Positions 11,013 to 53,750 of a stretch of 64,000 bases of DNA are shown piece by piece (the first letter of the stretch is position 1; each line of letters begins with the position of its first letter). Source of the DNA: Candidatus Jorgensenbacteria bacterium (lineage in GTDB: Bacteria > Patescibacteriota > Minisyncoccia > UBA6257 > GWB1-50-10). The stretch is taken from the NCBI GenBank assembly GCA_037444725.1, contig JBBILW010000001.1:5056-69055 (forward strand), read 5' to 3'. Made by a program: the position numbers and the translations under genes. Under the pieces are notes generated by a model that worked only from the letters and a program-made list of their open reading frames with translations, was not told the DNA's origin and made no database searches.

Positions 11013-11849
11013 TTAGGAATTCAATGCGTAGAAGTTTTTGAATAGCTGCGCGACAAGTATGGGACCCGTGCCACCCGGCGTCGGCGTAAAGCTAAGCGAG
11101 TCGGGCGCGCCTTTTGCTTCAAAATCGCCCGCAATGCGGCCGCGCTCCGCGCTATAACCAAAATCTACGACGAGCGCATCGTGCTTTACCATCGACGCCT
11201 TCACAAGTCCCGCGCTTCCCACGCCGATGATAACGATATCCATGTGCTTTAACTCCGATAAATCGCTCCCTTTATCGAGATAATGGATTTCGGAGCTCTT
11301 GCCGAGAAGCCACGTCCCGATGGGTTTTCCCACAAGTGAGCCCAAACCCACGACGCCGATTTTCTTGTGCTCGATAAACCAACCCGCAATTGAGGCGTCG
11401 TCGCCGCGTGCGTGAATGAGCTTTCTGTCGAGTACCGCAAGAAGCGTGCCGACCGAGGGAGGCAGAATTTTTCCTCGTCCCGTATAGAATGCGCCGAGTG
11501 CGCGCTCGCTCAATACGTCAACATCAACCTCGCGAGGAATCGAGTTTAGAAGATACTGCGCATTGAGATGCGCGGGAAGCGGCAGTTGGATAATAATGCC
11601 GCCGCATGCCTTTTTCTCCGCAATCGAGGCAATCTCTTTCCTCAAGTCGTCTTCACGCACGCGCTCGGAGTATGCGTGCAGTTCAAACGGTATACCGAGG
11701 CGCTTTGCGATTTTTTCTTTCTGCTTTATGAAGCTGAGAGACGCGGGCTCCTTGCCCACGAGAATCGCGTGGAGCGTCTTCTTCATCTTTTTCCCCGATT
11801 CGAGTTCCGCCAATATTTCTTCCGCAATCTGTTTGCCGTCGATTATCAT
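11013..11849 (-). CDS. folD: bifunctional methylene-THF dehydrogenase/methenyl-THF cyclohydrolase
   Basis: MIIDGKQIAEEIL start and PGGTGP motif, with FolD-like similarity over the full length. The track ORF is trimmed to the conserved Met. Confidence 0.85.
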   Translation of the reverse strand: MIIDGKQIAEEILAELESGKKMKKTLHAILVGKEPASLSFIKQKEKIAKRLGIPFELHAYSERVREDDLRKEIASIAEKKACGGIIIQLPLPAHLNAQYLLNSIPREVDVDVLSERALGAFYTGRGKILPPSVGTLLAVLDRKLIHARGDDASIAGWFIEHKKIGVVGLGSLVGKPIGTWLLGKSSEIHYLDKGSDLSELKHMDIVIIGVGSAGLVKASMVKHDALVVDFGYSAERGRIAGDFEAKGAPDSLSFTPTPGGTGPILVAQLFKNFYALNS

Positions 11850-11905
11850 GGACTCACTATACCACCCAATACAAACGCCCTCCACATGAGGGCGTTCCTA
11901 GAAAC

Positions 11906-13106: not shown

Positions 13107-13177
13107 TCATCTACCTTAGCGCAGGGGGAGAGGGAGAGTCAATCGACAATACTCCAGATTAGAGTAGAATTACGCCC

Positions 13178-14059
13178 ATGGCACAGGAAAAATTCAGAGC
13201 TATTACTGAAACCCAAGCAATCAATTTTCACGGCACATTCTTCAAAAAAGCAGTGCGTGACATTCTAGAGGAAGTTCCTGGTATGAGTATTCGAGAAGAG
13301 TATCCGGTACTTTATGAAAAGGATGCCTCAATCGATTTACTGGCAACATATCATGTAGATAAGTTTAAGCAATATATACCGATGGAATGCAAGCGTGCCT
13401 TACCAAGTGCAAAACATTGGCTATTTTTTCCTGTAAGTCACGGACTTACAACACGGGACGCACAGGCTATCCATCGTATAGATGGCTTTGGTAAATCAAC
13501 CAGGATCGGCGTCACAACCACGCCTATCTTAATCGACTCGGTGTGTATAGAGGGCATGGAAATAGAAACGAACGGAGAAACATTTCGAGCCAATCCTTCA
13601 CCAATTTGGGAGGCTGCCGAACAGATTGCCCGTAACTATATTGGTTTTGTTTTACAAGAACGCGATGAGCGTCAGCGTACCACACATGATGAAGGTCCTG
13701 ACCCAGTGGCAATGTTTCCGATGCTTATTACGACCGCAAAGCTTCATATTGCAAAATATGATGCCACAAAAATTCATCTCGGAGATGGTAATTATCCCAT
13801 AGATATCGAAAAACGAGAGGTGCCGTTTCTCTCCTTGAATCACCCGTTCATTCCTCAACGCAATGGAGTTGCCATCTTTGATACTGTTTTGCCAAGTAGT
13901 GTTTCTCCGCTTGTTGGCTCTTCGAGAGAATACGACAATCCCTGGATGCGGGAATCATTTCACAAACAATCAATTATTGTTGTGAATGCCATGCATTTGA
14001 AAGAATTTTTTGCCGCATATATTGCAAGCACCCAAGCTGGCGAACCTCAGGCGAAATAA
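13178..14059 (+). CDS. hypothetical protein with an N-terminal PD-(D/E)xK-like motif, encoded by a low-GC gene
   Basis: A clean 293-aa ORF. Its GC content and third-codon-position usage are clearly lower than in the neighbouring genes. The N-terminus has D(x16)ECK spacing. Confidence 0.6.
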   Translation: MAQEKFRAITETQAINFHGTFFKKAVRDILEEVPGMSIREEYPVLYEKDASIDLLATYHVDKFKQYIPMECKRALPSAKHWLFFPVSHGLTTRDAQAIHRIDGFGKSTRIGVTTTPILIDSVCIEGMEIETNGETFRANPSPIWEAAEQIARNYIGFVLQERDERQRTTHDEGPDPVAMFPMLITTAKLHIAKYDATKIHLGDGNYPIDIEKREVPFLSLNHPFIPQRNGVAIFDTVLPSSVSPLVGSSREYDNPWMRESFHKQSIIVVNAMHLKEFFAAYIASTQAGEPQAK

Positions 14060-14220
14060 TTTAGATTTCTAAGCGCTTCGGTGTCTCCTTCGCCTCTCGG
14101 CTCACCGTCGCTCACCTCGGGCTAGGCACCGCCTCGCGTGCAATTCTGCTGAATTGCACAAGCTCCGGCGTTCGACACCCGAACGCAAGGCGAGTAGTCG
14201 CCTTGCTCCATCACCCACAG

Positions 14221-14252
14221 CAAAACCCCGCCAAGAGGCGGGGGGTTTTGTG
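14221..14252. terminator. bidirectional rho-independent terminator immediately 3' of tRNA-Val
   Basis: ccccgcc-aaga-ggcgggg hairpin flanked by A- and T-runs. Confidence 0.55.
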
Positions 14253-14324
14253 TGGGCGCTGAGGGTGTCGAACCCCCGACCTACTCGGTGTAAACGAGTC
14301 GCTCTACCGCTGAGCTAAGCGCCC
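14253..14324 (-). tRNA. tRNA-Val (anticodon TAC)
   Basis: Manual cloverleaf fold: acceptor stem GGGCGCT/AGCGCCC, anticodon loop TTTACAC, T-loop TTCGACA. Length is 72 nt with no encoded CCA. Confidence 0.85.
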
Positions 14325-14388: not shown

Positions 14389-15414
14389 TTAGAACGCGAA
14401 TGCGCCCCTGAAGACGTTCTTCTCGAGAAGGCGCGCCTCCGTTTCCGTGAAATTGAACACCGCATCGCATCGCTCGATGACCTCCGGCATCGCCGGCAGG
14501 AAGAAGTCATCATCCGGGTTCAACGTGTAGCAGAGCCCGGCATCGAGAAGCTCAGGAATCCTCAACTCCTCGAGCGTCCCGATCGCACCCGTCGTAAGAT
14601 TCGAGAGGGGACAGCCTGCGACGCGGATGTGATTGTCCACCATGTAGCTCACCGTGTCGGGGTAGTCCACGAGCGGAATCGCGTGGCCCACGCCGTCGCA
14701 CTTCAGCACGTGGATAGCGGTGTGGATGTTGCGCATGAGGCGCGCACGATAGGTCTCGCGCGGCTCTTTCGCAACCCACTCGCCCGCGTGACAGTCCCGC
14801 CGCACCTTGCTGCCGAATGTGAGCTTGTACGCCTCGTAATGCTTTTCCGGCGGATGCGCCGCCTCATCGCACACGAGATTCAGCGCCGCTTCTCCGTCGA
14901 ACTCGAGCGCGATGCGCGCGATATCTTTTCCCGTCTCCACGTCCGCCTCGCGGCCGATGCAGATGTGCGGGAACACGCGGATATCGAGATTGAACTCGGT
15001 CGACTGCGCTGCTTCCACGAAGGCATGCGCGGCCTCGCGCATAGTGAGACCCTGCTTCGTGTGATACTGCGGCGCAAGATACGCCTCGACATACCGGTAT
15101 CCTTCAGCGCTGCGCGTGCGCGCATATTCGCGCACCGCATGGCGAATCGCCTCCTTCTTCTGAAGTGCGTTCGTGATGAGCGAAAACTTCTTCACGAGAT
15201 CAACGTGCACATTGCCGAAGAACGTTGCGAGCCTCTCCGGACTGCCTGCATTCTCCGCAACCTCGTACGGCAACGGCAACCCCGAGAGCTCGTAGAGCGT
15301 CGGGAGCGCTTTTGCGACTGCCATGCTTCCATCCACGTGGTCATGGTGCAATCCGCGAATAAACGGTTTCATGCGCGCCTTCCTTTCCCTGTTGGTTGGT
15401 AAGCTTCTCCTCAA
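14389..15414 (-). CDS. add: adenosine/adenine deaminase-family amidohydrolase
   Basis: HHDHVDGS metal-binding start and NPDDD motifs. Confidence 0.75.
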   Translation of the reverse strand: MRRSLPTNRERKARMKPFIRGLHHDHVDGSMAVAKALPTLYELSGLPLPYEVAENAGSPERLATFFGNVHVDLVKKFSLITNALQKKEAIRHAVREYARTRSAEGYRYVEAYLAPQYHTKQGLTMREAAHAFVEAAQSTEFNLDIRVFPHICIGREADVETGKDIARIALEFDGEAALNLVCDEAAHPPEKHYEAYKLTFGSKVRRDCHAGEWVAKEPRETYRARLMRNIHTAIHVLKCDGVGHAIPLVDYPDTVSYMVDNHIRVAGCPLSNLTTGAIGTLEELRIPELLDAGLCYTLNPDDDFFLPAMPEVIERCDAVFNFTETEARLLEKNVFRGAFAF

Positions 15415-24956: not shown

Positions 24957-25039
24957 GCTCCCGTGGCGGAACTGGCATACGCGCAGCGCTTAGGACGCTG
25001 TCCCCAAAAGGGTTAGAGGTTCAAATCCTCTCGGGAGCA
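24957..25039 (+). tRNA. tRNA-Leu (anticodon TAG), type II with a long variable arm
   Basis: Manual cloverleaf fold: acceptor stem GCTCCCG/CGGGAGC, anticodon loop CTTAGGA, T-arm AGAGG-TTCAAAT-CCTCT. Length is 83 nt. Confidence 0.85.
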
Positions 25040-25044
25040 CAAAA

Positions 25045-25275: not shown

Positions 25276-26193
25276 TTAGTTATCAGTTTCTTTCCGTCTG
25301 CGAGCATGAAACGCCTCATGCACTTCGCGGAGCTCTTTATTCGTAAGGTGAGTATATACCTGTGTCGTCGCAATGTTTGCGTGGCCCAAGAGCTCCTGCA
25401 CCGAGCGGAGGTCTGCGCCGTTCACAAGCAAGTCGGTCGCGAACGAGTGCCGTAACTCATGCGGGTGCACATGCTTTGCGATGCCTGCCGCACGGGCGTA
25501 GTGATCAACAAGACGCTGAATGGTCCGCGGGATAATACGCTCCATCGGCTTGCCGCTTTTCGAAAGACTTATGAAAAGCGCCTCATCCGCATCAGTCCGT
25601 TTTTTTAAATAATCCTTGATTGCCGTGCGAGCACCGGCCGAGAGAAAGACAACGCGGATTTTCTCTCCCTTTCCACGCACGGAAAGCTCTCCGCGCTCAA
25701 GGTCCAAATATCTCGAGAGCGCGCAAATTTCGGAAACGCGGAGACCGGTCGAAAAGAGAACCTCGAGAATCGCGCGATCGCGGAGCGCGCGGAGCGAATC
25801 ACCCTTCGGTGCGGCAAGGAGCCGCACCAGTTCTTTATACTCAAGCACCTCGATGTCGCGTCGCGCGATTTTGGGAAGCTCGATGGTTTCCGGCGCAAGT
25901 GACTTCACGCCGCGCTTCACGAAATACTTTAAAAGATTACGAAGCGCGATGACGTAATAGCTCTGTGTAATCTTTTTCATGCCGCGCCGCGAGAGCGACA
26001 CGCGAAAACTTCTGACAACCGCGTCGGTAATATCGGTAGGGGATTTCACTCCCGTTTCTTTCACGAACAAGGCAAGATAGCGTTCGTAATTCTCCCGCGT
26101 TTTTAACGAGCGATTTTTTTCAATCTCAAGATAATCGAGGTACTCCTTACAAAGGTCTTTTACATTCGCCATTATCTCCATTGTATCACGCAT
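25276..26193 (-). CDS. tyrosine site-specific recombinase (XerC/XerD/integrase family)
   Basis: Catalytic R...HxxR...Y constellation (LRHSFATDLL, HANIATTQVYTHL). The true start is uncertain and may lie anywhere from 26172 to 26322. Confidence 0.85.
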   Translation of the reverse strand: MRDTMEIMANVKDLCKEYLDYLEIEKNRSLKTRENYERYLALFVKETGVKSPTDITDAVVRSFRVSLSRRGMKKITQSYYVIALRNLLKYFVKRGVKSLAPETIELPKIARRDIEVLEYKELVRLLAAPKGDSLRALRDRAILEVLFSTGLRVSEICALSRYLDLERGELSVRGKGEKIRVVFLSAGARTAIKDYLKKRTDADEALFISLSKSGKPMERIIPRTIQRLVDHYARAAGIAKHVHPHELRHSFATDLLVNGADLRSVQELLGHANIATTQVYTHLTNKELREVHEAFHARRRKETDN

Positions 26194-26285
26194 ATATTGT
26201 GCGACAGATAATTGACCTGCATTTTGTGCGGGCGTAGAGTATGTACAGAACCTTTTAACCCGCAGGACCCCTATAAGGAGGGAAT

Positions 26286-26579
26286 ATGACACTCGAAAGA
26301 ACAAAGAGAGTACTCGCATCAAGCGAGGATGGAGACGGACAGAGCGTGGAGCTCATCGCGTATGGACCATACGAGAAGACGGTCACTTCGTCCACTGAAG
26401 GCGTGCCCGTGCGCATCAACGGCACGAAGCAGGTGATTCAGCTCCAGACCCGCTACCCCACGTGGGAATCGCTCTACGTCGTGAAGGTACGTGGTGAATC
26501 GGTCCTCAACACGTACGTTGCGCACATTGCCTGGGACAAGTTCAACAGCGCCATCGGCCTCGATCAGGTTGGCGCCTGA
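26286..26579 (+). CDS. hypothetical 97-aa protein
   Basis: High-GC ORF with a strong terminator downstream. No recognisable motif. Confidence 0.45.
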   Translation: MTLERTKRVLASSEDGDGQSVELIAYGPYEKTVTSSTEGVPVRINGTKQVIQLQTRYPTWESLYVVKVRGESVLNTYVAHIAWDKFNSAIGLDQVGA

Positions 26580-40026: not shown

Positions 40027-41397
40027 ATGGAAAGTTTTAAGAATCCGTTCGACGCGCGCATTAAAGCAATAGACGACGTTCTTGAGAAACGATTCGGAGA
40101 AGCAAAAACCGCAAGCGATTGGCAAAAGCGCGTAGAGGCGCTTGAAGAAGAGCAGAAAAAAACCAAAGACGCTGGTTATGATTTTTCGTACTACAAATCA
40201 GCAATCGCGCAAGCAAGAAAAAAGAAAGTTGAGACTATGGACGACGGCACACTTGAGGAGCAGCTCAAGAAAATTAAGGAGTTCGAATCGCTTCGTGAAG
40301 AAGAGGATAAAATCCTCCGCGAAAAAATAGAAGCGGAAACCGACGAGAAGAAAAAGGAGGGATTAAAAAAGGACAGAAATAAGGCGCTCGCGTATTATGA
40401 AAAGAAAATAAACGAGATTGAAGAAAAGATAAAACCGAAAAATGAGGAGGAGTTCATCAAAAAAATCTCGGACATAGAAGAGAGGAGGAGTGAAAAACTT
40501 CAACGATTGGGAGTAAACAAAGAAGGGAAGACCATCGCAGATGTTACTTATTTCGATTCACAGCTCGCCACAGCGCAACGCGAGCTCGATAAACTAATCA
40601 CCGCAAAAACCGAGAGGCCCGTTCAGTACGTTTTGGAAGCGGGTCTTAAGAAAATCCGCACGCAAAGGGATATAGAAATCGCCTCTCACGGCACGAGCAG
40701 TTTAAGCGACATCCTTAATGACGCTACAAAAAAATTTACCGTATTTGTTTCCGATTGGCGGAAATTTGATTCGCAAAAACTGAAACAAGCACGGCAATGG
40801 GAGGCGCGGCGAGCATCGCTCGACAAACTTGAACGAGATTTCGGGCCCGCCATAGAAGAAGTCAAAAAAATCCCCGCGTTCGCGTCTGAAGCGCAACAGA
40901 TTGAGGATGAAGTGCGCGCGATTATTAAAGAACAAAAAGAACTTGTGGATGATGAAACAAATAAGACGGATGGCGCGCAAAAATCCAAACCTGAGGCGTC
41001 ACAATCGATAGACGATCTTCTGAAGGTGATGGCGATTGCGCAAGAAGGCGAGCGAGTTAAAAAAGAACGTGAGACGTTGCAGCGGGAAAAGCCGATTCAA
41101 TTCCTTGTAGAAGATTTGATTAACCAGCTTCAGAAACAGCGTGATACTGAAACTCTTATAGATGCGCTGTATCAATTCGAAAGTTCTTGGCAAAAGATTG
41201 ACGAACGCAAGCCGGAAACAGAGGCGGAGTGGGCGCTTCGCCGCGATGCATTGCGGGCACTTAAAATGGAACTCCTCAATGCAAAGAAGAAATTGTCTGA
41301 TATGAAAATCGTTATCGATTATAGCGCAATCGACAACGAGATTGCGGATGCGGACGATTTTTTAGCTGCCGCGGGTAAAAAGGATCAGCAGTCCTAG
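40027..41397 (+). CDS. Lys/Glu-rich coiled-coil hypothetical protein
   Basis: Pervasive EK-rich heptad-like composition and no TM helix. Confidence 0.45.
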   Translation: MESFKNPFDARIKAIDDVLEKRFGEAKTASDWQKRVEALEEEQKKTKDAGYDFSYYKSAIAQARKKKVETMDDGTLEEQLKKIKEFESLREEEDKILREKIEAETDEKKKEGLKKDRNKALAYYEKKINEIEEKIKPKNEEEFIKKISDIEERRSEKLQRLGVNKEGKTIADVTYFDSQLATAQRELDKLITAKTERPVQYVLEAGLKKIRTQRDIEIASHGTSSLSDILNDATKKFTVFVSDWRKFDSQKLKQARQWEARRASLDKLERDFGPAIEEVKKIPAFASEAQQIEDEVRAIIKEQKELVDDETNKTDGAQKSKPEASQSIDDLLKVMAIAQEGERVKKERETLQREKPIQFLVEDLINQLQKQRDTETLIDALYQFESSWQKIDERKPETEAEWALRRDALRALKMELLNAKKKLSDMKIVIDYSAIDNEIADADDFLAAAGKKDQQS

Positions 41398-41439
41398 CCA
41401 ATAGGAGGTACAATTGAAAACGACATCGGTATATAATGT

Positions 41440-42618
41440 TTGTATACGAGAGATATGGATTATTCACTCATCACTGAACAAGCGATTAACAACCGATACA
41501 ATACCGTCCCGGAAGAACTTCGCGATGCGGTGGATTCCGAACAAACGCAAAAGCTGATATCCAACATCAGCAAAACGCAGTATTTGAATGAGGAAAAATC
41601 GCTTATCTTGGAGCAACTCGTTGCACTTGTGCTCCTCGGCTTTATGTCGACAAACGAACTGGTGCACGAGCTTCGCGAACAGCTTTTCTTAAACCATGAG
41701 CACGCCCGCGTACTGGCAAATGAGCTCAACAACAGAATTTTCGAGTCACTTAAAGAAGAGCTCGCTGCCGCATACAATCCTCCCGCGGCTACCATTGAAC
41801 AGGAAGCGCCTCAGCCTCCCTCGGCGGTAAGAGCACCAGCCGAAGAACCTCTTCCTATTACGTCGTTTAAGATCGCTCCGGAAGCGGCGCCTGCGCCGGC
41901 ATCCACGCCCGCGCCCATTTCTCCCGTTTCCATCAACGCAAGCGAAGGCGGGCCCGCAGTTTTGCAGAAACAGACGCCCTTTTTCGAACGGGCGGAATTA
42001 AAACCGACCGGTAAGAAACCGTCGCTTTCATTCAACACGTTCGCATCATCATCCGAGACCACCGAACCGCCTCGCGTTCAGGCAAAAATCGAAACTCCTC
42101 TCGGTGTGCAATGGGCAGCGAAAAAAGAGGAGCCTAAAAAAATGGGGAAGGTGGTGCACTATAGCGAATTCGGCTCATCAGGAGGCGGAGGCCGCCCCGC
42201 ACCCGTTTCGGAGTTTATTAATCTTGAGGCGCTCAAAAAGGTTTCGCTCGACACAAAGCCCGCCCCCGCGGCACCGCAGGTAGCCCCAGCCGCACCTCAA
42301 TCCGCAAGCCCCGCTCCGCAGCAACCTCCGGCAGCTCCTTCTGCGCCGATTCTTAACCCCGACGTGCCGACGCTCATCACGCCGGTCGCAACGATAAAGC
42401 CAGCGCCGATAGAAGAGAAAAAGAGTCCTCTCATGTGGGGTATAAATCCCATTTCTGTAAGCGTTCCAACTGCCACAACAGCTGATTCGGGACCGAAGCG
42501 TATGGATGCAATAGTGCCTAATGCCGGCTCTCCAGCAGCTCAAAAACCAGCTCCCGTACCGATTTCGAGCGATACGAAACAACCCGCACTTGAAGGAAAT
42601 GTTATTCACCTTCGCTAA
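41440..42618 (+). CDS. hypothetical protein with a Pro/Ala-rich central region
   Basis: The track start is a TTG. An ATG at 41455 is an alternative start. Confidence 0.4.
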   Translation: MYTRDMDYSLITEQAINNRYNTVPEELRDAVDSEQTQKLISNISKTQYLNEEKSLILEQLVALVLLGFMSTNELVHELREQLFLNHEHARVLANELNNRIFESLKEELAAAYNPPAATIEQEAPQPPSAVRAPAEEPLPITSFKIAPEAAPAPASTPAPISPVSINASEGGPAVLQKQTPFFERAELKPTGKKPSLSFNTFASSSETTEPPRVQAKIETPLGVQWAAKKEEPKKMGKVVHYSEFGSSGGGGRPAPVSEFINLEALKKVSLDTKPAPAAPQVAPAAPQSASPAPQQPPAAPSAPILNPDVPTLITPVATIKPAPIEEKKSPLMWGINPISVSVPTATTADSGPKRMDAIVPNAGSPAAQKPAPVPISSDTKQPALEGNVIHLR

Positions 42619-43115
42619 TGGCACAATTTCAGATACCACAATTTATTGAAGAGGAGGCAAAAATTGTCGGCCCTCTTACCATTAAACAATTCGGCTATCT
42701 CGCAGTCGCGGGGGGCCTTTCGTTTGGGCTCTTCTATTTATTTACGTTCTTTCTCTGGCTTATAGTGTCCGCCATTCTTATCGGCGCGGCGGCCGCCCTT
42801 GCATTCGTGAAGATTAACGGACAAGGTCTTCCTGAAATTCTTCTCGCGGGCTTTTCATTTTTATGGAAACCGCGCCGTTATGTTTGGCAGCGGGCAATGC
42901 AGCAGACCACGCTCGACATTTCCGATCTTGAAAAAATACAAACGATACGCAAAAGCATCAGTATTTCGGACAAGCTTAAGAACATCGCTGTAGGAGTGAC
43001 TACGGGAAAGATATTCCGCGGCGAGGGCGAAACACCAAGTCAGCCCAAAGAGCGTTATCAGGTTGTTTCTTACCTTACCGGGGAGCAGAAGGTAGCAAAG
43101 CGCATCGATTACTAG
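42618..43115 (+). CDS. PrgI/VirB3-like small T4SS membrane protein
   Basis: N-terminal IPQFIEEEAKIVGPLTIKQFGYL followed by two TM helices. It sits immediately upstream of the VirB4 ATPase, as in Gram-positive T4SS operons. Confidence 0.5.
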   Translation: MAQFQIPQFIEEEAKIVGPLTIKQFGYLAVAGGLSFGLFYLFTFFLWLIVSAILIGAAAALAFVKINGQGLPEILLAGFSFLWKPRRYVWQRAMQQTTLDISDLEKIQTIRKSISISDKLKNIAVGVTTGKIFRGEGETPSQPKERYQVVSYLTGEQKVAKRIDY

Positions 43116-43151
43116 CGCATAAACCGTTGAAATACGGTACAATATACGTAT

Positions 43152-43802
43152 ATGGCAGAAGTCAGCCTTCCTACACAACAATTCGTTGATATAAAAGAGG
43201 TGCGCAATGGCGTCGTCTACCTGAAACAGGGAGGCATGCGCAAGATTCTTATCGTGAGCGGCGTTAACTTCGACCTCAAATCCGAGGCTGAGCAGACCGC
43301 CATTCTCGGCACGTTCCAAAACTTCATCAATACCATCGATTTTCCTGTTCAATTTTTCATTCACTCGCGCAAAGTAAACATCGAGACCTATCTTGAGAAG
43401 ATGAGCGAGCGACAATCAAAGGAAGAAAACGAGCTCTTAAAAATACAGATTGGAGAATATATTGAATTTATCCGCTCATTTGTCGAACAGAACGCTATTA
43501 TCAATAAAACTTTTTTTGCAATTGTCCCTTACGACGGCGGAACGGTAGTGGCGGGCGGGGGAGTCGACAATATTCTTAATATGTTCAACAAGCCCCAGTC
43601 TGCCGACGTGCAAAAACAGCAATCGGAACATGCCGCACTCGAACAACTTGAGTTGCGCGTTACCGAAATTTCAAACGGAATTGAACAAATCGGCCTCCGT
43701 GTAACTCCTTTGAGCGACGCCGAGATAGTCGAGCTTTTCTATAACCTTTACAATCCGCAGCTTCAGGAAAAGAAGGGTCTTGAGATTACCAAGCAACAAT
43801 GA
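43152..43802 (+). CDS. VirB4/TrbE-family conjugative ATPase, N-terminal domain ORF
   Basis: ILIVSGVNFDLKSEAEQTAILGTFQNFINTIDFPVQFFIHSRKVNIETYLEKM resembles VirB4 N-terminal domains. The ORF ends in ATGA, overlapping the start of the next ORF. Confidence 0.6.
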   Translation: MAEVSLPTQQFVDIKEVRNGVVYLKQGGMRKILIVSGVNFDLKSEAEQTAILGTFQNFINTIDFPVQFFIHSRKVNIETYLEKMSERQSKEENELLKIQIGEYIEFIRSFVEQNAIINKTFFAIVPYDGGTVVAGGGVDNILNMFNKPQSADVQKQQSEHAALEQLELRVTEISNGIEQIGLRVTPLSDAEIVELFYNLYNPQLQEKKGLEITKQQ

Positions 43803-45550
43803 AAATAAAAATCCCGCAACTCTATAAGCCGTCGCCTCAAGATCTCCCGAACATTATTGCGCCGTCGGGACTTGAGATTAATGCGAACTACATTAAAATC
43901 GGCGATTATTACGCGAAAACGCTTTTTATTTTCACCTATCCTCGTTTTGTGATGACGGGATGGTTTTCGCCCATTATCAATATGGCGGAAATGATGGATG
44001 TTTCCATCTTCATGCATCCCATGGACACCTCGCTCGCGCTTCAAAATCTCCGTAAAAAAGTTGCGCAGGTAGAATCGGAGCTTAATGAAAAACAGGCGAA
44101 AGGAATGGTGCGCGACCCCATGCTTGAGACCGCATACCAAGACATAGAAACGCTGCGCGACGCGCTTCTTCAGGCACGCGAGAAGCTTTTTAAAGTCGGT
44201 GTATATATTACTGTGTACGCACAAACACTTGAGGCGCTCACCAAAATCGAGGGCCAGGTTTCAAATGTTTTGGAAGGGAAGCTTGTGTATATAAAACCGT
44301 CTCTTTTCAAACAACTCGAGGGGTTTGACTCCACACTTCCTCTTGGCGAAGACAAGCTGCAGATTCACACGCCGCTCAACTCCGGCTCCGCTTCGTCGCT
44401 CTTCCCGTTTGTATCACCTGATTTGAGCTCTGAAAAGGGAATTCTCTTCGGCATCAATATGAGCAATAACAGCCTCATTATTTTTGACCGTTTCTCGCTT
44501 GAAAACGCGAACCAGGTTATTTTCGCAAAGTCTGGCGCCGGTAAATCATATACCACCAAACTCCAGATTATCCGCTCACTCATGACGGGCACCAATGTCA
44601 TTGTTATCGACCCCGAAAACGAGTACCAAAACCTTGCCAATGCGGTCGGCGGAAGTTATTTCAAGATTTCACTTACCTCACCGAGCCACATTAATCCGTT
44701 CGACATCCCCATCATTCCGGAAGGGGAGGAGCCCGGAGACGTCTTCAAATCGCACGTGTTGAACCTCACGGGTCTTTTGAAACTCATGCTCGGCACTATT
44801 ACGCCCGAGGAAGACGCGATGCTCGATAAAGTTATCACCGACACGTACGCCTCACGTGACATTACGGCTGAGAATTTCGGTGTCACGAAAGAAATCAACC
44901 CGCCGCTCCTCGAAGACCTTCAGATTATTTTGCAAAACACCGAGGGCGGCCGCGCTCTTGCTCAGCGTCTTGAAAAATTCACTCACGGTTCGTATGCCGG
45001 CTTCACCAATGCGCCGACGAACGTTGATATCAAGAACCGCCTTATCGTGTTCTCAATCCGCGACCTGGAGGAAGAATTGCGCCCCATCGCGATGTACATC
45101 GTGTTGAACTTCGTGTGGAACCTCGTACGCTCCGAGCTCAAACAGCGCCTTCTCTTTGTCGACGAGGCGTGGATTATGATGAAGTTTAAAGACAGCGCCT
45201 CCTTCCTCTTCGGCCTTGTAAAACGCGCGCGCAAATACTTCCTCGGCATAACGACCATCACCCAGGACGTGGAAGATTTCTTGAAGTCGGAATACGGACG
45301 ACCGATTGTCACGAACTCTGCAATGCAGATTCTCATGAAACAGTCGCCGAGTTCTATTGAGGCAGTTGCGAAAACATTCGATCTCACCGATGGCGAACGC
45401 GTGCTTCTTCTGGAAGCCGGGGTGGGCGAGGGGTTGTTCTTTGCGGGTGCAAAGCACGTAGCTATTAAAATAATCGCGTCATACACGGAAGATCAGATTA
45501 TTACTACAAACCCCGAGCAAATGCTGGAGACTAAAGGATTGCAAAAATAA
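43799..45550 (+). CDS. VirB4/TrbE/CagE-family conjugative ATPase, C-terminal ATPase ORF
   Basis: Walker A (FAKSGAGKSYTTK), Walker B (LLFVDEAWIM) and a YAKTLFI...YPR region. Confidence 0.8.
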   Translation: MKIKIPQLYKPSPQDLPNIIAPSGLEINANYIKIGDYYAKTLFIFTYPRFVMTGWFSPIINMAEMMDVSIFMHPMDTSLALQNLRKKVAQVESELNEKQAKGMVRDPMLETAYQDIETLRDALLQAREKLFKVGVYITVYAQTLEALTKIEGQVSNVLEGKLVYIKPSLFKQLEGFDSTLPLGEDKLQIHTPLNSGSASSLFPFVSPDLSSEKGILFGINMSNNSLIIFDRFSLENANQVIFAKSGAGKSYTTKLQIIRSLMTGTNVIVIDPENEYQNLANAVGGSYFKISLTSPSHINPFDIPIIPEGEEPGDVFKSHVLNLTGLLKLMLGTITPEEDAMLDKVITDTYASRDITAENFGVTKEINPPLLEDLQIILQNTEGGRALAQRLEKFTHGSYAGFTNAPTNVDIKNRLIVFSIRDLEEELRPIAMYIVLNFVWNLVRSELKQRLLFVDEAWIMMKFKDSASFLFGLVKRARKYFLGITTITQDVEDFLKSEYGRPIVTNSAMQILMKQSPSSIEAVAKTFDLTDGERVLLLEAGVGEGLFFAGAKHVAIKIIASYTEDQIITTNPEQMLETKGLQK

Positions 45551-45554
45551 TGCC

Positions 45555-45905
45555 ATGGAAGACGAGAAGCCATTTTCTCTTGTTGAAATAATCTTCGGCA
45601 CTCTTATTGCGCTTATCATCGACGTTGTGGCCGCGATTGCGAGCGCGTTCAGTCTCGGTATTCTCGGTTTTTTTGTCCACGCGGGAACATGGCTCGTCTT
45701 CACGCTCTGGTTTACAATTAAAGGGTTGGGCGTGACCGCTTCGCTCGCGAGAAGATATTTTCTTCCCATGGCAATTCAGGCAATTCCTTTTCTCCCCACA
45801 ACAACCGTAACATTCCTCATGGTCACGTATATGGAAAATAATCCCGATAAATTCGCTGCAGTTACGTCAGTGGCACGCGTAGCGGGTACTGTTGCAAAGC
45901 TATAA
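45555..45905 (+). CDS. small multi-TM membrane protein
   Basis: About three hydrophobic helices. Position within the cluster. Confidence 0.4.
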   Translation: MEDEKPFSLVEIIFGTLIALIIDVVAAIASAFSLGILGFFVHAGTWLVFTLWFTIKGLGVTASLARRYFLPMAIQAIPFLPTTTVTFLMVTYMENNPDKFAAVTSVARVAGTVAKL

Positions 45906-45907
45906 CC

Positions 45908-46585
45908 ATGCGCCAACTCACCACAATTCTTGCGTTCGCCTTCGTGCTTTTTATCGCGCTACACTCTTTCGCGTACGCAGCAGGGGCGCCGGCGCTCATC
46001 ATCACGTGGAAAGCCGATAATTATTACCCCATTAACTTCGAGGGCAGGGCGCTTCCTTCGCCGACAACGCCCGTAACCGTTTCTGTAGAGGGCGCTGTTG
46101 ATGGAAAACTTATCGATCTCTCAAAGGCGGACATTTCCTGGTACAAAGACGGTGACAGGTTTGATGTAGGCTCCGGACTTAAAGAAACTTCATTTAATGC
46201 CGAGGACACGGATGCGGGCTCGCACTTTATCCGCGTAGTTGCGGTTATTAATGGAGTTTCCGCGGAGCAAACGATTCGCATACCCGTCGTAAGCCCCGTC
46301 GCAGTGCTCGAGGTGCCATATCCGAATAAAGTCGTTCCTGCGGGAACTGTGGCGAATCTCGTAAGCGTGCCTTACTTTTTTAATGCGTCATCGATAACCG
46401 ACTTCATCTTCAGCTGGCAGATTGCCGACCTCAAACAAAACACCGGAAGCGATAACGTACTCGCGATAAATGTCGGCACGCCTTATACTGATGACCAACG
46501 GACAGTGACGGTTAACTCGTACATTCAAAATCGCAATAATCCGTTTGAAATCGTGAAGCTTCTCACCGATATTTTTGTGAAATAA
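45908..46585 (+). CDS. secreted hypothetical protein
   Basis: Signal peptide with a beta-rich composition. Confidence 0.4.
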   Translation: MRQLTTILAFAFVLFIALHSFAYAAGAPALIITWKADNYYPINFEGRALPSPTTPVTVSVEGAVDGKLIDLSKADISWYKDGDRFDVGSGLKETSFNAEDTDAGSHFIRVVAVINGVSAEQTIRIPVVSPVAVLEVPYPNKVVPAGTVANLVSVPYFFNASSITDFIFSWQIADLKQNTGSDNVLAINVGTPYTDDQRTVTVNSYIQNRNNPFEIVKLLTDIFVK

Positions 46586-46594
46586 TCCATCTCA

Positions 46595-47800
46595 ATGACC
46601 AGACGACAAATTACCATCCTCCTCATACTTTTCCTCATGGTCGTGGGTGTTATCGTGTACGCAATTTTCTTCCGTGGAACAACGACTCCCGCGGAACAAG
46701 CAGCGCCCTCCGAGCAGCAAACCACAGGAGAGCCGCAAGGCGTGACGGGCACCACAGGAACAACTCCTTCTGGCGCCACACCTGAGGCGACAACAACCAC
46801 CACGACCGAATTTCCTCCGGCGGCCACCGCGGGAGATACGTATGTGCTCAAAAAACTTTCCGACGGTCCTGTTGTAGGCTATTGGGCGGCAAAAAATTCA
46901 AATGACGTCTATTATCTCACCAACGACGGATATGTGATGTCGGCAAAAGAGGGGCCTGATGTAGATCTCTTAAAACAGGAAGTGAAGGGGGTAATCAAGC
47001 TTGAGGGATCTCCCTCAGGAAACAAGGCGCTTGTCGCATTCGGAAATGCAGCCTCCCCGCAATGGGCCGTGTTCGACACACAAGACAAGGCATGGAGACC
47101 GCTTCCCTCAACTATTATTGATGCAACATGGGGCATAAGCGATGACGGCATTGTGGCAACCACGAAGTCTATGGGGAATAACATTGCGCTCACCTATATC
47201 ACTATCTCCAAAACGCCGTTTGATATTAAAACTATCGTGAAGGATTTTCGCTTCAACAGCGTAACTCTCGCCATAAAATCTATTGACGAGCTTTACATAA
47301 TGGAACGCCCGTCCGCATTGGCGCTATCGCATGTCTGGCTTTTCAATCTTAAGTCGAACGCCCTCACGCAGGTGCTTAATCCGGCAAACGGCCTCACGCT
47401 TGTTCCGGGAAGCAATAAAGATATTTTCTTCCGTTTTAGCTCGCCGAATAATTTTGCGATACTCAACCGCTCGCTTGGCATGACGCAGCCATTTCCTTAT
47501 GTCACATTACCTCAAAAGTGCGACGGGGTAAGCACGGCCGTTTACTGCTTTGTTCCTAAAAATACTTCTATTTTTTCGGCCAGCAATTCAATGCCCGATG
47601 ATTATCTTATGAAAAAAACGTACACGAGCGATGATTTTTACCGCCTTGACCTCACGACAGGAGGGGATAGGCTTATAGTAACGGGCGACTCAGCAAACGC
47701 TCCTGCACTTGATGCGCAAAATGTGCGGACGAGGGGCACATCAACGTATTTCGTTAACCGTTACGATAACTATGTCTATGCGATCCAGAAGGCACAATAA
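46595..47800 (+). CDS. membrane-anchored secreted hypothetical protein with a Thr-rich linker
   Basis: N-terminal TM helix and a TGTTGTTPSGATPEATTTTTT linker. Confidence 0.4.
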   Translation: MTRRQITILLILFLMVVGVIVYAIFFRGTTTPAEQAAPSEQQTTGEPQGVTGTTGTTPSGATPEATTTTTTEFPPAATAGDTYVLKKLSDGPVVGYWAAKNSNDVYYLTNDGYVMSAKEGPDVDLLKQEVKGVIKLEGSPSGNKALVAFGNAASPQWAVFDTQDKAWRPLPSTIIDATWGISDDGIVATTKSMGNNIALTYITISKTPFDIKTIVKDFRFNSVTLAIKSIDELYIMERPSALALSHVWLFNLKSNALTQVLNPANGLTLVPGSNKDIFFRFSSPNNFAILNRSLGMTQPFPYVTLPQKCDGVSTAVYCFVPKNTSIFSASNSMPDDYLMKKTYTSDDFYRLDLTTGGDRLIVTGDSANAPALDAQNVRTRGTSTYFVNRYDNYVYAIQKAQ

Positions 47801-47801
47801 T

Positions 47802-49196
47802 ATGAATAAAAAAACGCTGTTTGCTCTCGTGGTTGTCAGCCTCATCATCGTGCCTTCTATTATTCTCGCGGCTAGCGCTCCCGCGCCCCTGCGCTTCTCG
47901 CCACCTTACATAAGCGGCGTACCGGGGTTTGCCGGCACTTCACAGGCGCCCATCATGTCGGGTGGAGCAACCTCGATTCAGGATTATCTTATTCGCATTT
48001 ATCAGTTTGCTATCGGTATCTCAGGCGTAACCGCGGTCGGCATGATTGTGTGGGGCGCTATCAATATGTCGATTTATACAGGACGTATCGACCGATACGA
48101 GGAAGGTAAAACAATAATTTACCAGGCACTTTTTGGTCTTGCGCTTCTCTTTGGTTCATACCTCTTACTCAACACCATCAACCCGCAAATCACCACACTC
48201 ACCGAACCAACCGGAGGCGGAAAACAACTCGATGCAGTTACCACAACCACAGTAGCAAACCCAGGATCGAGCGCGTCGGGCTCATCGATATGCGGCGGCG
48301 GGCAACTTGCGAGCATACCGCAACTTCCCAACCTTTCATCCGCCACGCCGAGCGCAACTGGCTGCGAATATAGGCGCCTCCAACTCACGCAAGACCTCAC
48401 ATACTCCGCAAAGGGTATGTATAACCAAGACCTTAACTTGAAAAAAGGTGCCATTATATGGCTCTGGCCGTATTATGTTGGAGACACAGCATCAGCACGT
48501 TGTACTATCTACGCCTATAAAGACGCTCCCATTGAAGTGCCTAATTACGCTCCAGATGGCTCCGTTCAAGGACCTCCGACTCTTTCTTATCCCGCGACCC
48601 AACAAGTGTCGCTCAAGCTTGATGGTATGAGTAAATGCGGAAACGACCCCGCGACCCAGCAACCAGGCGCAACCTGCACCGATTGCGCAGCAACCGGAGG
48701 TTCGGTTGATGTAAGCGGTATTAACACAAGCAATCTTGATGGCAACGGATCATGCTCGCCATCAATAAACACCTCACCCGCGGGCATTATTTCCGATATA
48801 AAAAATGGCAATCTTCCCTACATTTGTTACCCGGGCTGCAACTCGACAACTGCGCCTTGCACGAGAAGCGGAGCAACACTTTCCGCAAATACCGTAAACA
48901 CGATTATCAATCTCCAAAATTCCGGAATGTCCTTTACAGTAACAAGTCTCACGGGCGGTTCACACAGCGCGGTAGGTGATGTGCACTATCAAGGAAAGGC
49001 ACTTGATGTGGTGTTTCAGCCGCAAGATGCCACCACGTGGAATAAGGCATTGAAATTACTACAAGGCATGAGCACTGTTTCACAGGCGGCATGTGAATTC
49101 ATTGGAGGTAGTCCGCCCAACTTTGATCAGAGTTCGTGTAATGGCTTATTCGCATCAGGCACCACAAATCGGCACATCCACGTCACCACGAAATAA
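47802..49196 (+). CDS. pilin-fold (VirB2-like) N-terminal domain fused to an extracellular domain of about 320 aa that contains many Cys
   Basis: Signal peptide followed by two hydrophobic helices (IQDYLIRIYQFAIGISGVTAVGMIVWGAI...ALFGLALLFGSYLLLNTINP), then a long C-terminal domain with many Cys. Start trimmed to MNKKT. Confidence 0.45.
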   Translation: MNKKTLFALVVVSLIIVPSIILAASAPAPLRFSPPYISGVPGFAGTSQAPIMSGGATSIQDYLIRIYQFAIGISGVTAVGMIVWGAINMSIYTGRIDRYEEGKTIIYQALFGLALLFGSYLLLNTINPQITTLTEPTGGGKQLDAVTTTTVANPGSSASGSSICGGGQLASIPQLPNLSSATPSATGCEYRRLQLTQDLTYSAKGMYNQDLNLKKGAIIWLWPYYVGDTASARCTIYAYKDAPIEVPNYAPDGSVQGPPTLSYPATQQVSLKLDGMSKCGNDPATQQPGATCTDCAATGGSVDVSGINTSNLDGNGSCSPSINTSPAGIISDIKNGNLPYICYPGCNSTTAPCTRSGATLSANTVNTIINLQNSGMSFTVTSLTGGSHSAVGDVHYQGKALDVVFQPQDATTWNKALKLLQGMSTVSQAACEFIGGSPPNFDQSSCNGLFASGTTNRHIHVTTK

Positions 49197-51062: not shown

Positions 51063-52445
51063 ATGGAACATCAGGAACTTTGGAAAACAGTGCTTGGTGA
51101 GATAGAACTCCAGATTTCGCGACCAAATTTCCTTACGTGGTTCAAAAACAGCCAGTTAGTGGAGAAAAACGAGAAGGAGGGGGTGGCGCTTGTGGCATTA
51201 CCGAACAATTTCGCGAAGGAGTGGGTAAAAAATCGTTATCATAAGATTATTTTAGGTTCGTTACGCAACATCGACGGCTCAATTAAGTACGTAAACTACG
51301 TTGTGGTGAGTCACAACACTCCGCTTAAGCCCTCAAAGGTGGAGCGGAAGCAAAAAGCGCCGGAATTAACCGACGAAAAATCAAATCTTCCCATCACCGA
51401 TCTTCGTGTTGACTCAAAAACGAATCTCAATCCGAAATATATCTTTGATTCCTTCGTTGTCGGCTCCTCAAACGAGCTTGCATGCGCCGCCATCAACGCG
51501 GTTATCGACAATGTCGGGAAAAAATACAACCCGCTCTTTATTTATGGAGGAGTAGGTTTGGGAAAAACACACCTTCTCCAGGCAGCAGGGAATGCGGTGC
51601 ATCAAAAATATGAAGGGAAGGTGCGTGTGTTGTATGTAACCTCGGAAAAATTCATCAATGACGTTGTGTGGGCACTCCGCAACAAGCGCGCGGACGACAT
51701 GAAGAAAAAATACCGCGATGTGGATATGCTTATCATCGACGATATCCAATTCATCGGCGGCAAAGCGGCAACAGAGCTCGAATTCTTTTATACATTTAAC
51801 GCGCTCTACGAAAACAACAAGCAGATTATTATTTCATCCGATCGTCCGCCCGCAGCAATCCCCACACTCGAAGAAAGACTTCGTTCACGCTTTGAGGGGG
51901 GAATGATTGCGGATGTCGCGTATCCGGATTATGAAATGCGTTTGGCAATTTTAAAAACCAAAGCGCAGTCTCATAACGCAAATATCGACGAAAAAACCCT
52001 TGAATATATCGCGACGAAAGTCCAGAAGAACATCAGGGAAGTGGAGGGGGTGCTCAATAAGGTGTTGTTTTACCAACAGTATAAAAACAACCAAATAGAC
52101 CAGAAGAAACTTGATGAAATCATCAGTGAAACATCGCAGGTTTCACCGAAAAACATCACTCCCGCCGATATTATTAAGACCGTTGCTGAGTTTTATGAGA
52201 TATCCCAGCAGGAACTCACCGATAGAGGAAGGAAGCAGGAAATAGTGGAACCTCGGCAGGTAGTAATGTACCTCTTGAGAGAAATGTTGAAACTTTCGTA
52301 TCCGAATATCGGCGAACGCCTTGGAAAGCGGGATCATACTACCGTTATCCACGCATACGAGAAAATCTCAAAAGAGGTGCAATCGAATTCCGCGTTCAAC
52401 CAGAAAATACTCCTTATCAAAGAACGACTGTTTAAAAATTCTTAA
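51063..52445 (+). CDS. dnaA: chromosomal replication initiator DnaA
   Basis: AAA+ Walker A (GGVGLGKTHL) and a C-terminal DNA-binding domain. Confidence 0.95.
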   Translation: MEHQELWKTVLGEIELQISRPNFLTWFKNSQLVEKNEKEGVALVALPNNFAKEWVKNRYHKIILGSLRNIDGSIKYVNYVVVSHNTPLKPSKVERKQKAPELTDEKSNLPITDLRVDSKTNLNPKYIFDSFVVGSSNELACAAINAVIDNVGKKYNPLFIYGGVGLGKTHLLQAAGNAVHQKYEGKVRVLYVTSEKFINDVVWALRNKRADDMKKKYRDVDMLIIDDIQFIGGKAATELEFFYTFNALYENNKQIIISSDRPPAAIPTLEERLRSRFEGGMIADVAYPDYEMRLAILKTKAQSHNANIDEKTLEYIATKVQKNIREVEGVLNKVLFYQQYKNNQIDQKKLDEIISETSQVSPKNITPADIIKTVAEFYEISQQELTDRGRKQEIVEPRQVVMYLLREMLKLSYPNIGERLGKRDHTTVIHAYEKISKEVQSNSAFNQKILLIKERLFKNS

Positions 52446-52640
52446 ATTCGGTGGATGAAGTGTGGATAAGGACTGATAACTGATGAATGAAAAGGTGATA
52501 AGAATGCGAAAAGTGTTGAAAGTGTAAAAATTCATCCACACCACCCACCGCACTTTCCACAGATTAGAAAAATAAAAACGCTGATACAGATTGATTAAAA
52601 AGAGTTTATCCCCATATCCACAGACACTACTACGACTACT
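52446..52640. other. candidate oriC, a DnaA-box cluster in the dnaA-dnaN spacer
   Basis: tgtggataa at 52461-52469 is a perfect TTATCCACA box. Three 8/9 matches lie at 52532-52540, 52606-52614 and 52614-52622, plus a weaker 7/9 match at 52451-52459 and an AT-rich stretch. Confidence 0.6.
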
Positions 52641-53750
52641 ATGAAATTAATTATATTAAAGAATAACTTAATAGAAGGATTAGGGGCGGTTGAGCGGGCA
52701 ATCAGCGCGGTAGCCAATCTTCCGATTTTAAAAAACATTCTTATAAAAACCGAAGGCGGAAGAATTTCTTTTACCTGTACCAATCTTGAGATTGCGATTA
52801 CTCAGCTTGTTCCCGGAAAGATTGTTGAAGAAGGCGAGATAACCGTACCGCTTTCTGTGTTTGCACCGGTAGCGAAAAATATTAATTCGGAACGTATCAC
52901 GCTCGAAGTGAAGGATAATCATATTTCCGTCGTTACCGATAACTATGAAGCAACGATTCAAGCGCACAACGCAAAAGATTTTCCCATAATCCCTTCGATT
53001 GCGGATAAAAGCAGTGTGGTGAAAATCGCATCAGCGAAACTTCTTGAAGCATTGCAGAGCGTAATTGTCGCGACACAGTATTCCGAAATTCGTCCTGAGA
53101 TAAGCGGCGTTTATTTTAAGATTTCTGATCAGAACCTCATACTAGCCGCGACAGACAGTTTTCGCCTCGCAGAACGCGTTATAGAAGCAACAGACGTGTA
53201 TACCACGCTCGATGAGGCATCGATGATTGTGCCGTATAAAACTGCGGAAGAATTAGTGAAATTTCTCCAAGGTCCCGAACAAGAAATCGAAATTTATATC
53301 GAAGCGAATCAAGTTTTATTTAAAACCAACACTAAACAGCTTATTTCACGGCTTGTTGATGGAACATTCCCCGAATACAAAGCGATTATTCCCAAACAAA
53401 TCCAGAATGAGGCGACTATCAGCAGAATTGAGCTTGTGAACGCATTAAAACTCGCGAGTTCTTTTGCGGGCCGCACGAACGATGTGACTCTCAAGGTAGG
53501 GGATAATAAGAAATTTATCGAATTATATTCCGCAGATTCTTCTGTAGGTGAAAATCGCTACCGAATTCCCATTAAACTCAAAGGAGACGCGTTTTCTGTC
53601 GTGTTTAATTGGCGCTATCTCCTCGATGGCTTGCGCATCTACTCATCAGACGATGTTATTCTCGGTATTAATGCCGCGTCACGCCCTGCGGTAATTAAAA
53701 ACACACTTGAGTCAGCGCTCACCTATGTGGTGATGCCGATAAATCAGTAG
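52641..53750 (+). CDS. dnaN: DNA polymerase III beta sliding clamp
   Basis: Three-domain clamp with MKLIILKNNLIEGL start. Confidence 0.9.
   Translation: MKLIILKNNLIEGLGAVERAISAVANLPILKNILIKTEGGRISFTCTNLEIAITQLVPGKIVEEGEITVPLSVFAPVAKNINSERITLEVKDNHISVVTDNYEATIQAHNAKDFPIIPSIADKSSVVKIASAKLLEALQSVIVATQYSEIRPEISGVYFKISDQNLILAATDSFRLAERVIEATDVYTTLDEASMIVPYKTAEELVKFLQGPEQEIEIYIEANQVLFKTNTKQLISRLVDGTFPEYKAIIPKQIQNEATISRIELVNALKLASSFAGRTNDVTLKVGDNKKFIELYSADSSVGENRYRIPIKLKGDAFSVVFNWRYLLDGLRIYSSDDVILGINAASRPAVIKNTLESALTYVVMPINQ

Follow-up and report, generated by a model that had tools for sequence, protein, structure and literature searches.

A solitary gene for a predicted nuclease of the PD-(D/E)xK (restriction-endonuclease) fold was found on an inserted cassette of ~0.92 kb in the genome of a Candidatus Jorgensenbacteria bacterium, between a ykuK-like gene and the gene for tRNA-Val. 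The DNA analysed, termed the window, is the whole 64,000-nt stretch in which the cassette lies; loci that bear homologs of the gene, or that belong to relatives, were compared with the window and are denoted by L-numbers. The gene encodes a protein of 293 aa, and the cassette is probably a mobile one of defence type, whose stand-alone nuclease would degrade foreign DNA. The features of the locus are collected in Table 1.

Direct searches with the 293-aa protein gave no match in Pfam, NCBIfam, PHROGs, PADLOC or the sequences of the PDB, and a word-indexed search of 5.8 billion proteins returned two relatives only, of 92% and 32% identity. A HMMER profile built from those relatives was searched exhaustively against 1.8 billion representatives of clusters formed at 50% identity, and this search recovered 565 cluster representatives at E <= 1e-3 (121 at E <= 1e-10). 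The clusters are scattered across unrelated phyla, nearly all of the full-length matches are of 260-320 aa, and their names never go beyond ‘hypothetical protein’. Five residues (D53, E70, K72, W81 and T185) are invariant in an alignment of 90 members, and ten others (G19, C71, F83, E128, A146, Q149, P181, A187, L189 and G204) are nearly so. A preliminary description of this DNA, made from its letters, had pointed to a PD-(D/E)xK-like motif in the N-terminal part of the protein; the spacing is exactly as described (D53, 16 residues, then E70-C71-K72), and the three presumed catalytic residues are the same in every aligned member.

Structure prediction, which that description had proposed as a check, gave a PD-(D/E)xK fold. 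The AlphaFold2 model, built from 29 homologs after an earlier model from 3 sequences had proved unusable (predicted local distance difference test score, pLDDT, of 44), has a pLDDT of 80 and a predicted template modelling score (pTM) of 0.82. It contains the alpha/beta core of the fold with a central mixed beta-sheet (alpha-beta-beta-beta-alpha-beta), in which D53 lies on strand 50-60 and E70 and K72 on strand 63-72, so that the family-wide D...(D/E)xK residues occupy beta2 and beta3. As conservation spans the full length of the protein, it appears to be one elaborated nuclease domain, comparable in size to type IIP/IIF restriction enzymes; a separate sensor or modified-base reader domain was not recognised in it.

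Scattered sub-threshold Pfam matches of single members fell mostly on families of PD-(D/E)xK type (HSDR_N_2, PDDEXK_9, PDDEXK_11 and NERD). The sole nuclease that the family profile matched among PDB sequences was Upx, with an E-value of 1.7 that is not significant alone. The profile-to-sequence alignment places D53/E70/K72 on D1161/E1176/K1178 of Upx, which are the experimentally defined catalytic residues of its Mg2+-dependent C-terminal domain (PMC13099982). Foldseek searches of the PDB and BFVD yielded nothing significant at the global level and aligned nuclease cores over short local stretches only. In the nuclease comparison NucS, Can2, Shedu SduA, N.BspD6I, FokI, Bse634I, Cfr10I, NucC and Hjc were placed lower. 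The assignment of the 293-aa protein to the PD-(D/E)xK fold is supported by these computations on sequence and model, and the protein is presumably an active nuclease.

The gene is real and its product is kept by purifying selection, though less tightly than its neighbours: dN/dS against the ortholog in the sister genome (L001) is 0.15, and the flanking genes give 0.02-0.035. An upstream in-frame alternative start is absent, and tblastn found no paralog elsewhere in the window.

The limits of the insertion were set by alignment with relatives that lack the gene. Homology with L023 and L026 runs from the start of YkuK to ...GTCAA (window 13146) and resumes at ~14068, and the intervening cassette consists of a promoter-like site, the open reading frame (ORF) and a trailer of 8 nt, with no second ORF. 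The gene is present at the identical site in a sister genome sampled four times (L001-L004; YkuK 94% identical over the aligned gene), and the two proteins share 92% of their residues. It is absent from L023/L024 (GCA_021814545.1 and another metagenome-assembled genome; YkuK 86%), where the order is FtsH - tRNA-Ile - deaminase - tRNA-Val - 250-nt spacer - YkuK with tRNA-Val inverted, from L026 (YkuK 80%), where it is tRNA-Ile - tRNA-Val - element - YkuK, and from the vicinity of ykuK in L036/L037 (YkuK 67%), where the neighbours are different. No copy was found by tblastn in any of these five gene-less loci (L023, L024, L026, L036 and L037). Inspection of the insertion ends by eye gave nothing convincing in the way of a target-site duplication or terminal inverted repeats; no recombinase was seen with the cassette, and there is no integrase within 11 kb.

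The composition of the gene also sets it apart. Its G+C content is 0.430 and its G+C content at third codon positions (GC3) is 0.361, the lowest among 57 long ORFs of the window (mean 0.582, SD 0.069, z about -3.2). Its codon-usage fit, taken as the likelihood of its codons under the usage pooled from the other ORFs, ranks last of 43 (z -3.27). The neighbouring genes have a GC3 of 0.65 (YkuK-like), 0.65 (RNase_H_2) and 0.77 (adenosine deaminase). The observation that the gene is AT-rich and prefers A/T-ending codons relative to its neighbours is borne out. However, the second-lowest GC3 in the window (0.419) belongs to the core gene dnaN, and composition alone is therefore not decisive for a foreign origin. 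Low G+C content extends to the family, whose members fall below their surroundings at 13 of 14 loci, by 0.02-0.20. Together with the absence of the gene from close relatives and the discordance at synonymous sites described below, the low GC3 upholds the view that a compositionally foreign single gene was laterally acquired. Neither an ordinary composition nor a syntenically conserved housekeeping fold without nuclease character, the two findings that the preliminary description had named as contrary to its reading, was encountered.

These data also bear on whether the protein might be a housekeeping nuclease of DNA repair or recombination (NucS/EndoMS-, Hjc- or MutH-like) with an odd composition. 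This is very improbable, as the gene is absent at the locus in three closer and more distant relatives, the homologs are themselves AT-shifted at the 13 of 14 loci, and the phyletic pattern (only ~565 clusters in 1.8 billion representatives, in unrelated phyla) contradicts such a role; the synonymous-site discordance with the flanks likewise speaks against vertical inheritance.

That discordance was quantified between the window and L001. In the nuclease gene the proportion of differing synonymous sites (pS) is 0.226 (dS 0.27) and dN is 0.040. In YkuK, RNase_H_2 and the C-terminus of FtsH, which flank the gene on both sides, pS is 0.56-0.63 (dS 1.0-1.4) and dN is 0.026-0.036. Synonymous divergence is therefore ~five times lower in the gene than in its flanks (pS 0.23 vs 0.61; Fisher p = 5e-19). 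Nucleotide identity between the two loci climbs from ~0.83 to ~0.95 at ~13050 and stays high until ~14190. The lower pS and the tract of high identity imply that the two copies of the cassette share a much more recent ancestor than the core genes around them, and these observations point to transfer or recombination of the cassette between the two lineages after they had split.

Such movement could also be the work of a selfish, free-standing homing-type endonuclease, which would cut the empty intergenic site in relatives and have the cassette copied in by repair. The precise intergenic insertion of a single gene with its own promoter and no recombinase fits this explanation, as does the occupation of one and the same site in both lineages, with ~five times more synonymous divergence in the flanks. 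The high-identity tract exceeds the insertion by ~100 nt and ~120 nt, as co-conversion might leave it, several homologs are solitary among housekeeping genes (e.g. L013), and the sister genome has another endonuclease-like gene with a helix-turn-helix (HTH) domain inserted nearby (L001 2654-3337). However, exchange by ordinary homologous recombination among related populations accounts just as well for the dS discordance, and the identity on the right side may reflect constraint on a structured element. The insertion sites of different family members are moreover unrelated, and several members lie in restriction-modification (R-M) operons or defence islands, which is atypical of homing endonuclease genes. 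Homing is consequently an improbable account of the cassette. The nearby gene of the sister genome (- strand) encodes a 227-aa HTH_23 protein, lies between tRNA-Ile and FtsH and has no counterpart in the window; it contains a LAGLIDADG-like stretch, YLAGLFLYWGEGG, and may itself be a free-standing homing endonuclease.

The sequence between the cassette and tRNA-Val is a conserved, structured non-coding element of ~155 nt, which is ~95% identical in L001 (2293-2441) and ~80% identical in the gene-less L026 (about 143-328, - strand). The degenerate inverted piece of tRNA-Val that had been reported at about 14166-14186 is real: of the 14 letters at 14167-14180 (+), GGCGTTCGACACCC, 13 agree with the T-loop/T-stem of tRNA-Val (14263-14276, -), where 0.01 chance matches would be expected in the window. 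It is not a scar of the arrival of the gene, because the element also occurs in L026, where the gene is missing. A decayed copy of the tRNA-Val 3' end lies in the window element at about 14072-14085. In L026 two perfect copies of a 20-nt sequence from the 3' end of tRNA-Val, TTGTGGGCGCTGAGGGTGTC, stand in direct orientation on either side of the element (306-325 and 126-145, - reading), and they resemble attL/attR attachment sites around only ~165 nt. RNAalifold predicted 58 pairs, 9 of them with compensatory changes, which form four hairpins inside a stem of tRNA-Val acceptor-stem sequence; this enclosing stem is broken in the window copy. No credible Rfam match was obtained for the element, and its conserved 20-mer core did not occur in the viral contigs of IMG/VR. 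As there is no terminator between the stop codon of the nuclease gene and the element, the sequence suggests that the element forms the 3' untranslated region (UTR) of that gene. The element may be a tRNA-derived non-coding RNA, a relic of an attachment (att) site or a decayed convergent copy of tRNA-Val.

The cassette had been described as a single-gene island at a tRNA. The foreign single-gene insertion stands; integration targeted to the tRNA does not, since an integrase is missing and the tRNA-derived sequence was there before the gene. A tRNA-targeted integrative island was rejected on the grounds that no integrase lies within 11 kb, that no repeats bracket the gene and that the repeat remnant lies between gene and tRNA. 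A search for another tRNA-Val 3' end with which the gene would be bracketed as by attL/attR found none, the 20-mer being present once in the window. The cassette resembles tRNA-integrated islands in adjoining the 3' end of a tRNA gene and in the 20-nt tRNA 3'-end repeat of L026; unlike them it has no integrase, and that repeat brackets a non-coding element of ~165 nt which predates the gene.

The divergent promoter region and the bidirectional terminator next to tRNA-Val that had been noted earlier are both present. The promoter-like site falls in a divergent spacer of 71 nt, in a region that is identical at L001. Its -10 element ends 7 nt before the ATG of the nuclease gene and a Shine-Dalgarno sequence is absent, and because of this short distance the mRNA is possibly leaderless, beginning at 13178. 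The terminator hairpin is common to the cassette (+) and tRNA-Val (-). The order of genes in the window is FtsH - tRNA-Ile - adenosine deaminase - tRNA-Val - [element] - nuclease gene - YkuK-like - RNase_H_2 - FolD - RecA. The nearest relatives of the YkuK-like protein, with names of Paceibacteria/Parcubacteria type, assign the window to Patescibacteria.

Table 1. Features of the cassette and of the adjoining sequence, in window coordinates.
Feature	Position	Strand	Description or basis
Sigma-70-like promoter TCGACA-16-TAGAAT	13143..13170	+	Consensus scan, 10/12 matches
Inserted single-gene cassette, ~0.92 kb	13147..14067	+	Alignment with gene-less relatives; limits within ~5 nt
293-aa ORF	13178..14059	+	Stand-alone PD-(D/E)xK nuclease (predicted), unnamed family
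Predicted catalytic-triad codons	13334..13393	+	D53 13334-13336, E70 13385-13387, K72 13391-13393; strands beta2 and beta3
Conserved structured non-coding element, ~155 nt	14072..14225	+	Between ORF and terminator; conservation and RNAalifold
Bidirectional intrinsic terminator hairpin	14226..14243	.	G+C-rich, 7 G-C pairs; scores on both strands
tRNA-Val(UAC)	14252..14324	-	ARAGORN; Rfam tRNA 68 bits; 3' end toward cassette

Other changes were observed around the cassette. In L023 (7677-7749) and L024 (1176-1248), tRNA-Val and its upstream promoter region are inverted relative to ykuK when compared with the window, and the ~155-nt element is missing; the spacer is a hotspot of rearrangement. 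The adenosine deaminase gene (window 14389-15414, -), which lies between tRNA-Val and tRNA-Ile and has the highest GC3 in the window, is also present in L023, and it is not found between the two tRNAs in the sister L001 or in L026; the gene thus resembles a further variable cassette of the locus. Further gene flux in the neighbourhood is seen in folD, which lies between RNase_H_2 and recA in the window (11013-11885) and in L026 and is missing in L023 (between 9085 and 9291) and L024.

The genomic contexts of distant homologs suggest, by analogy, a role in defence or abortive infection. At three loci (L011, L027 and L028) no more than ~30 nt separate the end of the family gene from a type III Mod gene (N6_N4_Mtase), or the two overlap, with Res (ResIII) next, and at L021/L022 a divergent member stands head-to-head with another type III Mod/Res pair. 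Ahead of the L011 member there are, in addition, a PDC-S20 KAP NTPase (E 1e-128), which is a defence candidate, and DarG-like and dGTPase-like genes. The L015 member is part of a P4-like integrase/primase island and has QatABCD (QatA E 4e-265) immediately after it, and the member at L012 has an integrase and a DUF4062 protein in its vicinity. By inspection of the sequence, a truncated copy at L035 is beside a resolvase and small ORFs resembling toxin-antitoxin pairs, and the member at L032 adjoins an ORF resembling a fragment of a restriction endonuclease. The linkage to type III mod-res in other phyla (L011 9917-13367, L027 66-1488, L028 292-3784 and L021 1-5489), which takes the form of translational coupling or of divergent orientation, perhaps represents a three-gene variant of type III R-M. 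At L011 the family ORF reads on without a stop for 539 aa, which suggests a frameshift or an assembly error. The neighbours of the homologs are not conserved as they would be in a toxin-antitoxin or two-gene abortive-infection module, and the window, unlike some of these loci, has no mod or res beside which the gene could be an accessory of type III R-M.

Since some homologs adjoin DNA methyltransferases, the protein could alternatively be a type II-like R-M endonuclease whose methyltransferase gene lies at another place in the genome, or an orphan that has lost this partner. The neighbours in the window are the YkuK-like gene and tRNA-Val/adenosine deaminase, so that no methyltransferase is adjacent, and a scan of the plausible long ORFs of the 64-kb window for methyltransferase motifs ([DNS]PP[YFW] or PCQ), crude as it was, found none. 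The methyltransferases beside the homologs are type III Mod subunits already paired with Res, and the cassette moved as one gene. An unprotected type II enzyme would also kill the cell, which does not fit with the purifying selection on the gene. An R-M endonuclease of this kind is accordingly unlikely. As the cassette has no methyltransferase, none was detected in the 64 kb and the gene is nevertheless under purifying selection, the DNA of the cell would be spared either through gating of the enzyme or through a substrate specificity for foreign DNA that is modified or has an unusual structure.

The reading that remains preferred is a mobile, defence-type nuclease, for which the following course of events may be proposed. 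The cassette, with its own promoter, would have entered a lineage of Patescibacteria (Paceibacteria-type), landed between the ykuK-like gene and a pre-existing element next to tRNA-Val, and passed between two related lineages after their core genomes had diverged. Its product would be a Mg2+-dependent DNA endonuclease or exonuclease acting through D53/E70/K72, and E128 may supply a further acidic ligand. The enzyme would degrade foreign DNA, in the manner of a type IV-like, modification-dependent restriction enzyme or of an effector gated in another way, and in some homologs it might serve as an accessory nuclease of type III R-M operons.

Several observations weigh against this interpretation. 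The methyltransferase scan was a crude motif search confined to the 64-kb window, and the type IV-like idea draws no direct support from the protein, since a domain that reads modified bases was not recognised in it. At roughly half of the homolog loci the surroundings are plain housekeeping genes, with solitary inserts at L013 (rpoD / ABC transporter), L018, L029 and L034. The family had no match in IMG/VR viral contigs, GenBank phages or PLSDB plasmids, and no vector was thereby identified; these scans of collections used the closer alignment subset A6, alignment A3 being too divergent. PADLOC v2 gave 0 hits for the query and 4 scattered single hits among 90 members, and no known defence family corresponds to the protein.

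A bolder proposal, that the cassette is a new single-gene, methyltransferase-free, restriction-like system against phages or plasmids which moves as a minimal unit of promoter plus gene, with the tRNA-Val-derived element acting as a pad for its landing or recombination, or else as a 3' UTR with a regulatory role, is possible and doubtful. Under that proposal the gene would be among the few defence genes shown to have been exchanged within Patescibacteria, and elsewhere the family would provide the third component of a type III R-M variant. If the defence role is right, the gene would add an unannotated family (~565 clusters, with no Pfam, NCBIfam or PADLOC model) to the restriction-fold nucleases of defence islands. 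It would also document that such a cassette has recently moved among lineages of ultra-small Patescibacteria, whose immune repertoire is poorly known, and the repeated operonic link to type III mod-res is a concrete lead that can be tested.

Three other parts of the window may be noted. The dnaA and dnaN genes are adjacent (51063-53750, +), for which reason a replication origin is probably nearby; the dnaN GC3 of 0.42 is low for a core gene. A cluster at 40027-49196 (+) encodes PrgI-family and T4SS-pilin-like proteins, together with several ORFs that have no Pfam match, at a somewhat lower G+C content than the rest of the window, and is a candidate for a type IV secretion or conjugation-like module. 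A tyrosine recombinase (Phage_integrase + SAM_1, XerC/D-like; 25276-26322, -) lies 236 nt from tRNA-Leu(UAG) (24957-25040, +).

Among known systems, those structurally nearest to the 293-aa protein, as judged from the model, are the catalytic domain of Upx and the type IIP/IIF enzymes; it is a member of no named family. Upx is a single-protein anti-phage system with a C-terminal PD-(D/E)xK domain (PDB 9wuf; PMC13099982). It is defined by three domains, two of them nuclease domains, and a length of ~1270 aa: Upx itself (1272 aa) has a further nuclease domain at its N-terminus and a regulatory domain in the middle, whereas the 293-aa protein has no domains of this kind. With an E-value of 1.7 (not significant) and 15% identity, the two have a fold in common, limited to the core of the C-terminal domain, and not a family. 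The type IIP/IIF group of Cfr10I, Bse634I and NgoMIV shows 7-10% identity and no family-level match, and the adjacent cognate methyltransferase by which a type II R-M system is recognised is not present here. McrC and other type IV systems, Shedu SduA, Can2/Card1, NucC and HamA work with partners or sensor domains (McrB, CARF, SAVED or a helicase), none of which was found in this case, and there was no PADLOC match. In its working mode the protein may be likened to the PD-(D/E)xK defence nucleases that lack a methyltransferase. Stand-alone PD-(D/E)xK nucleases of unassigned specificity are common accessory genes, and the cassette opens no new category: it would be fairly ordinary mobile cargo of defence type.
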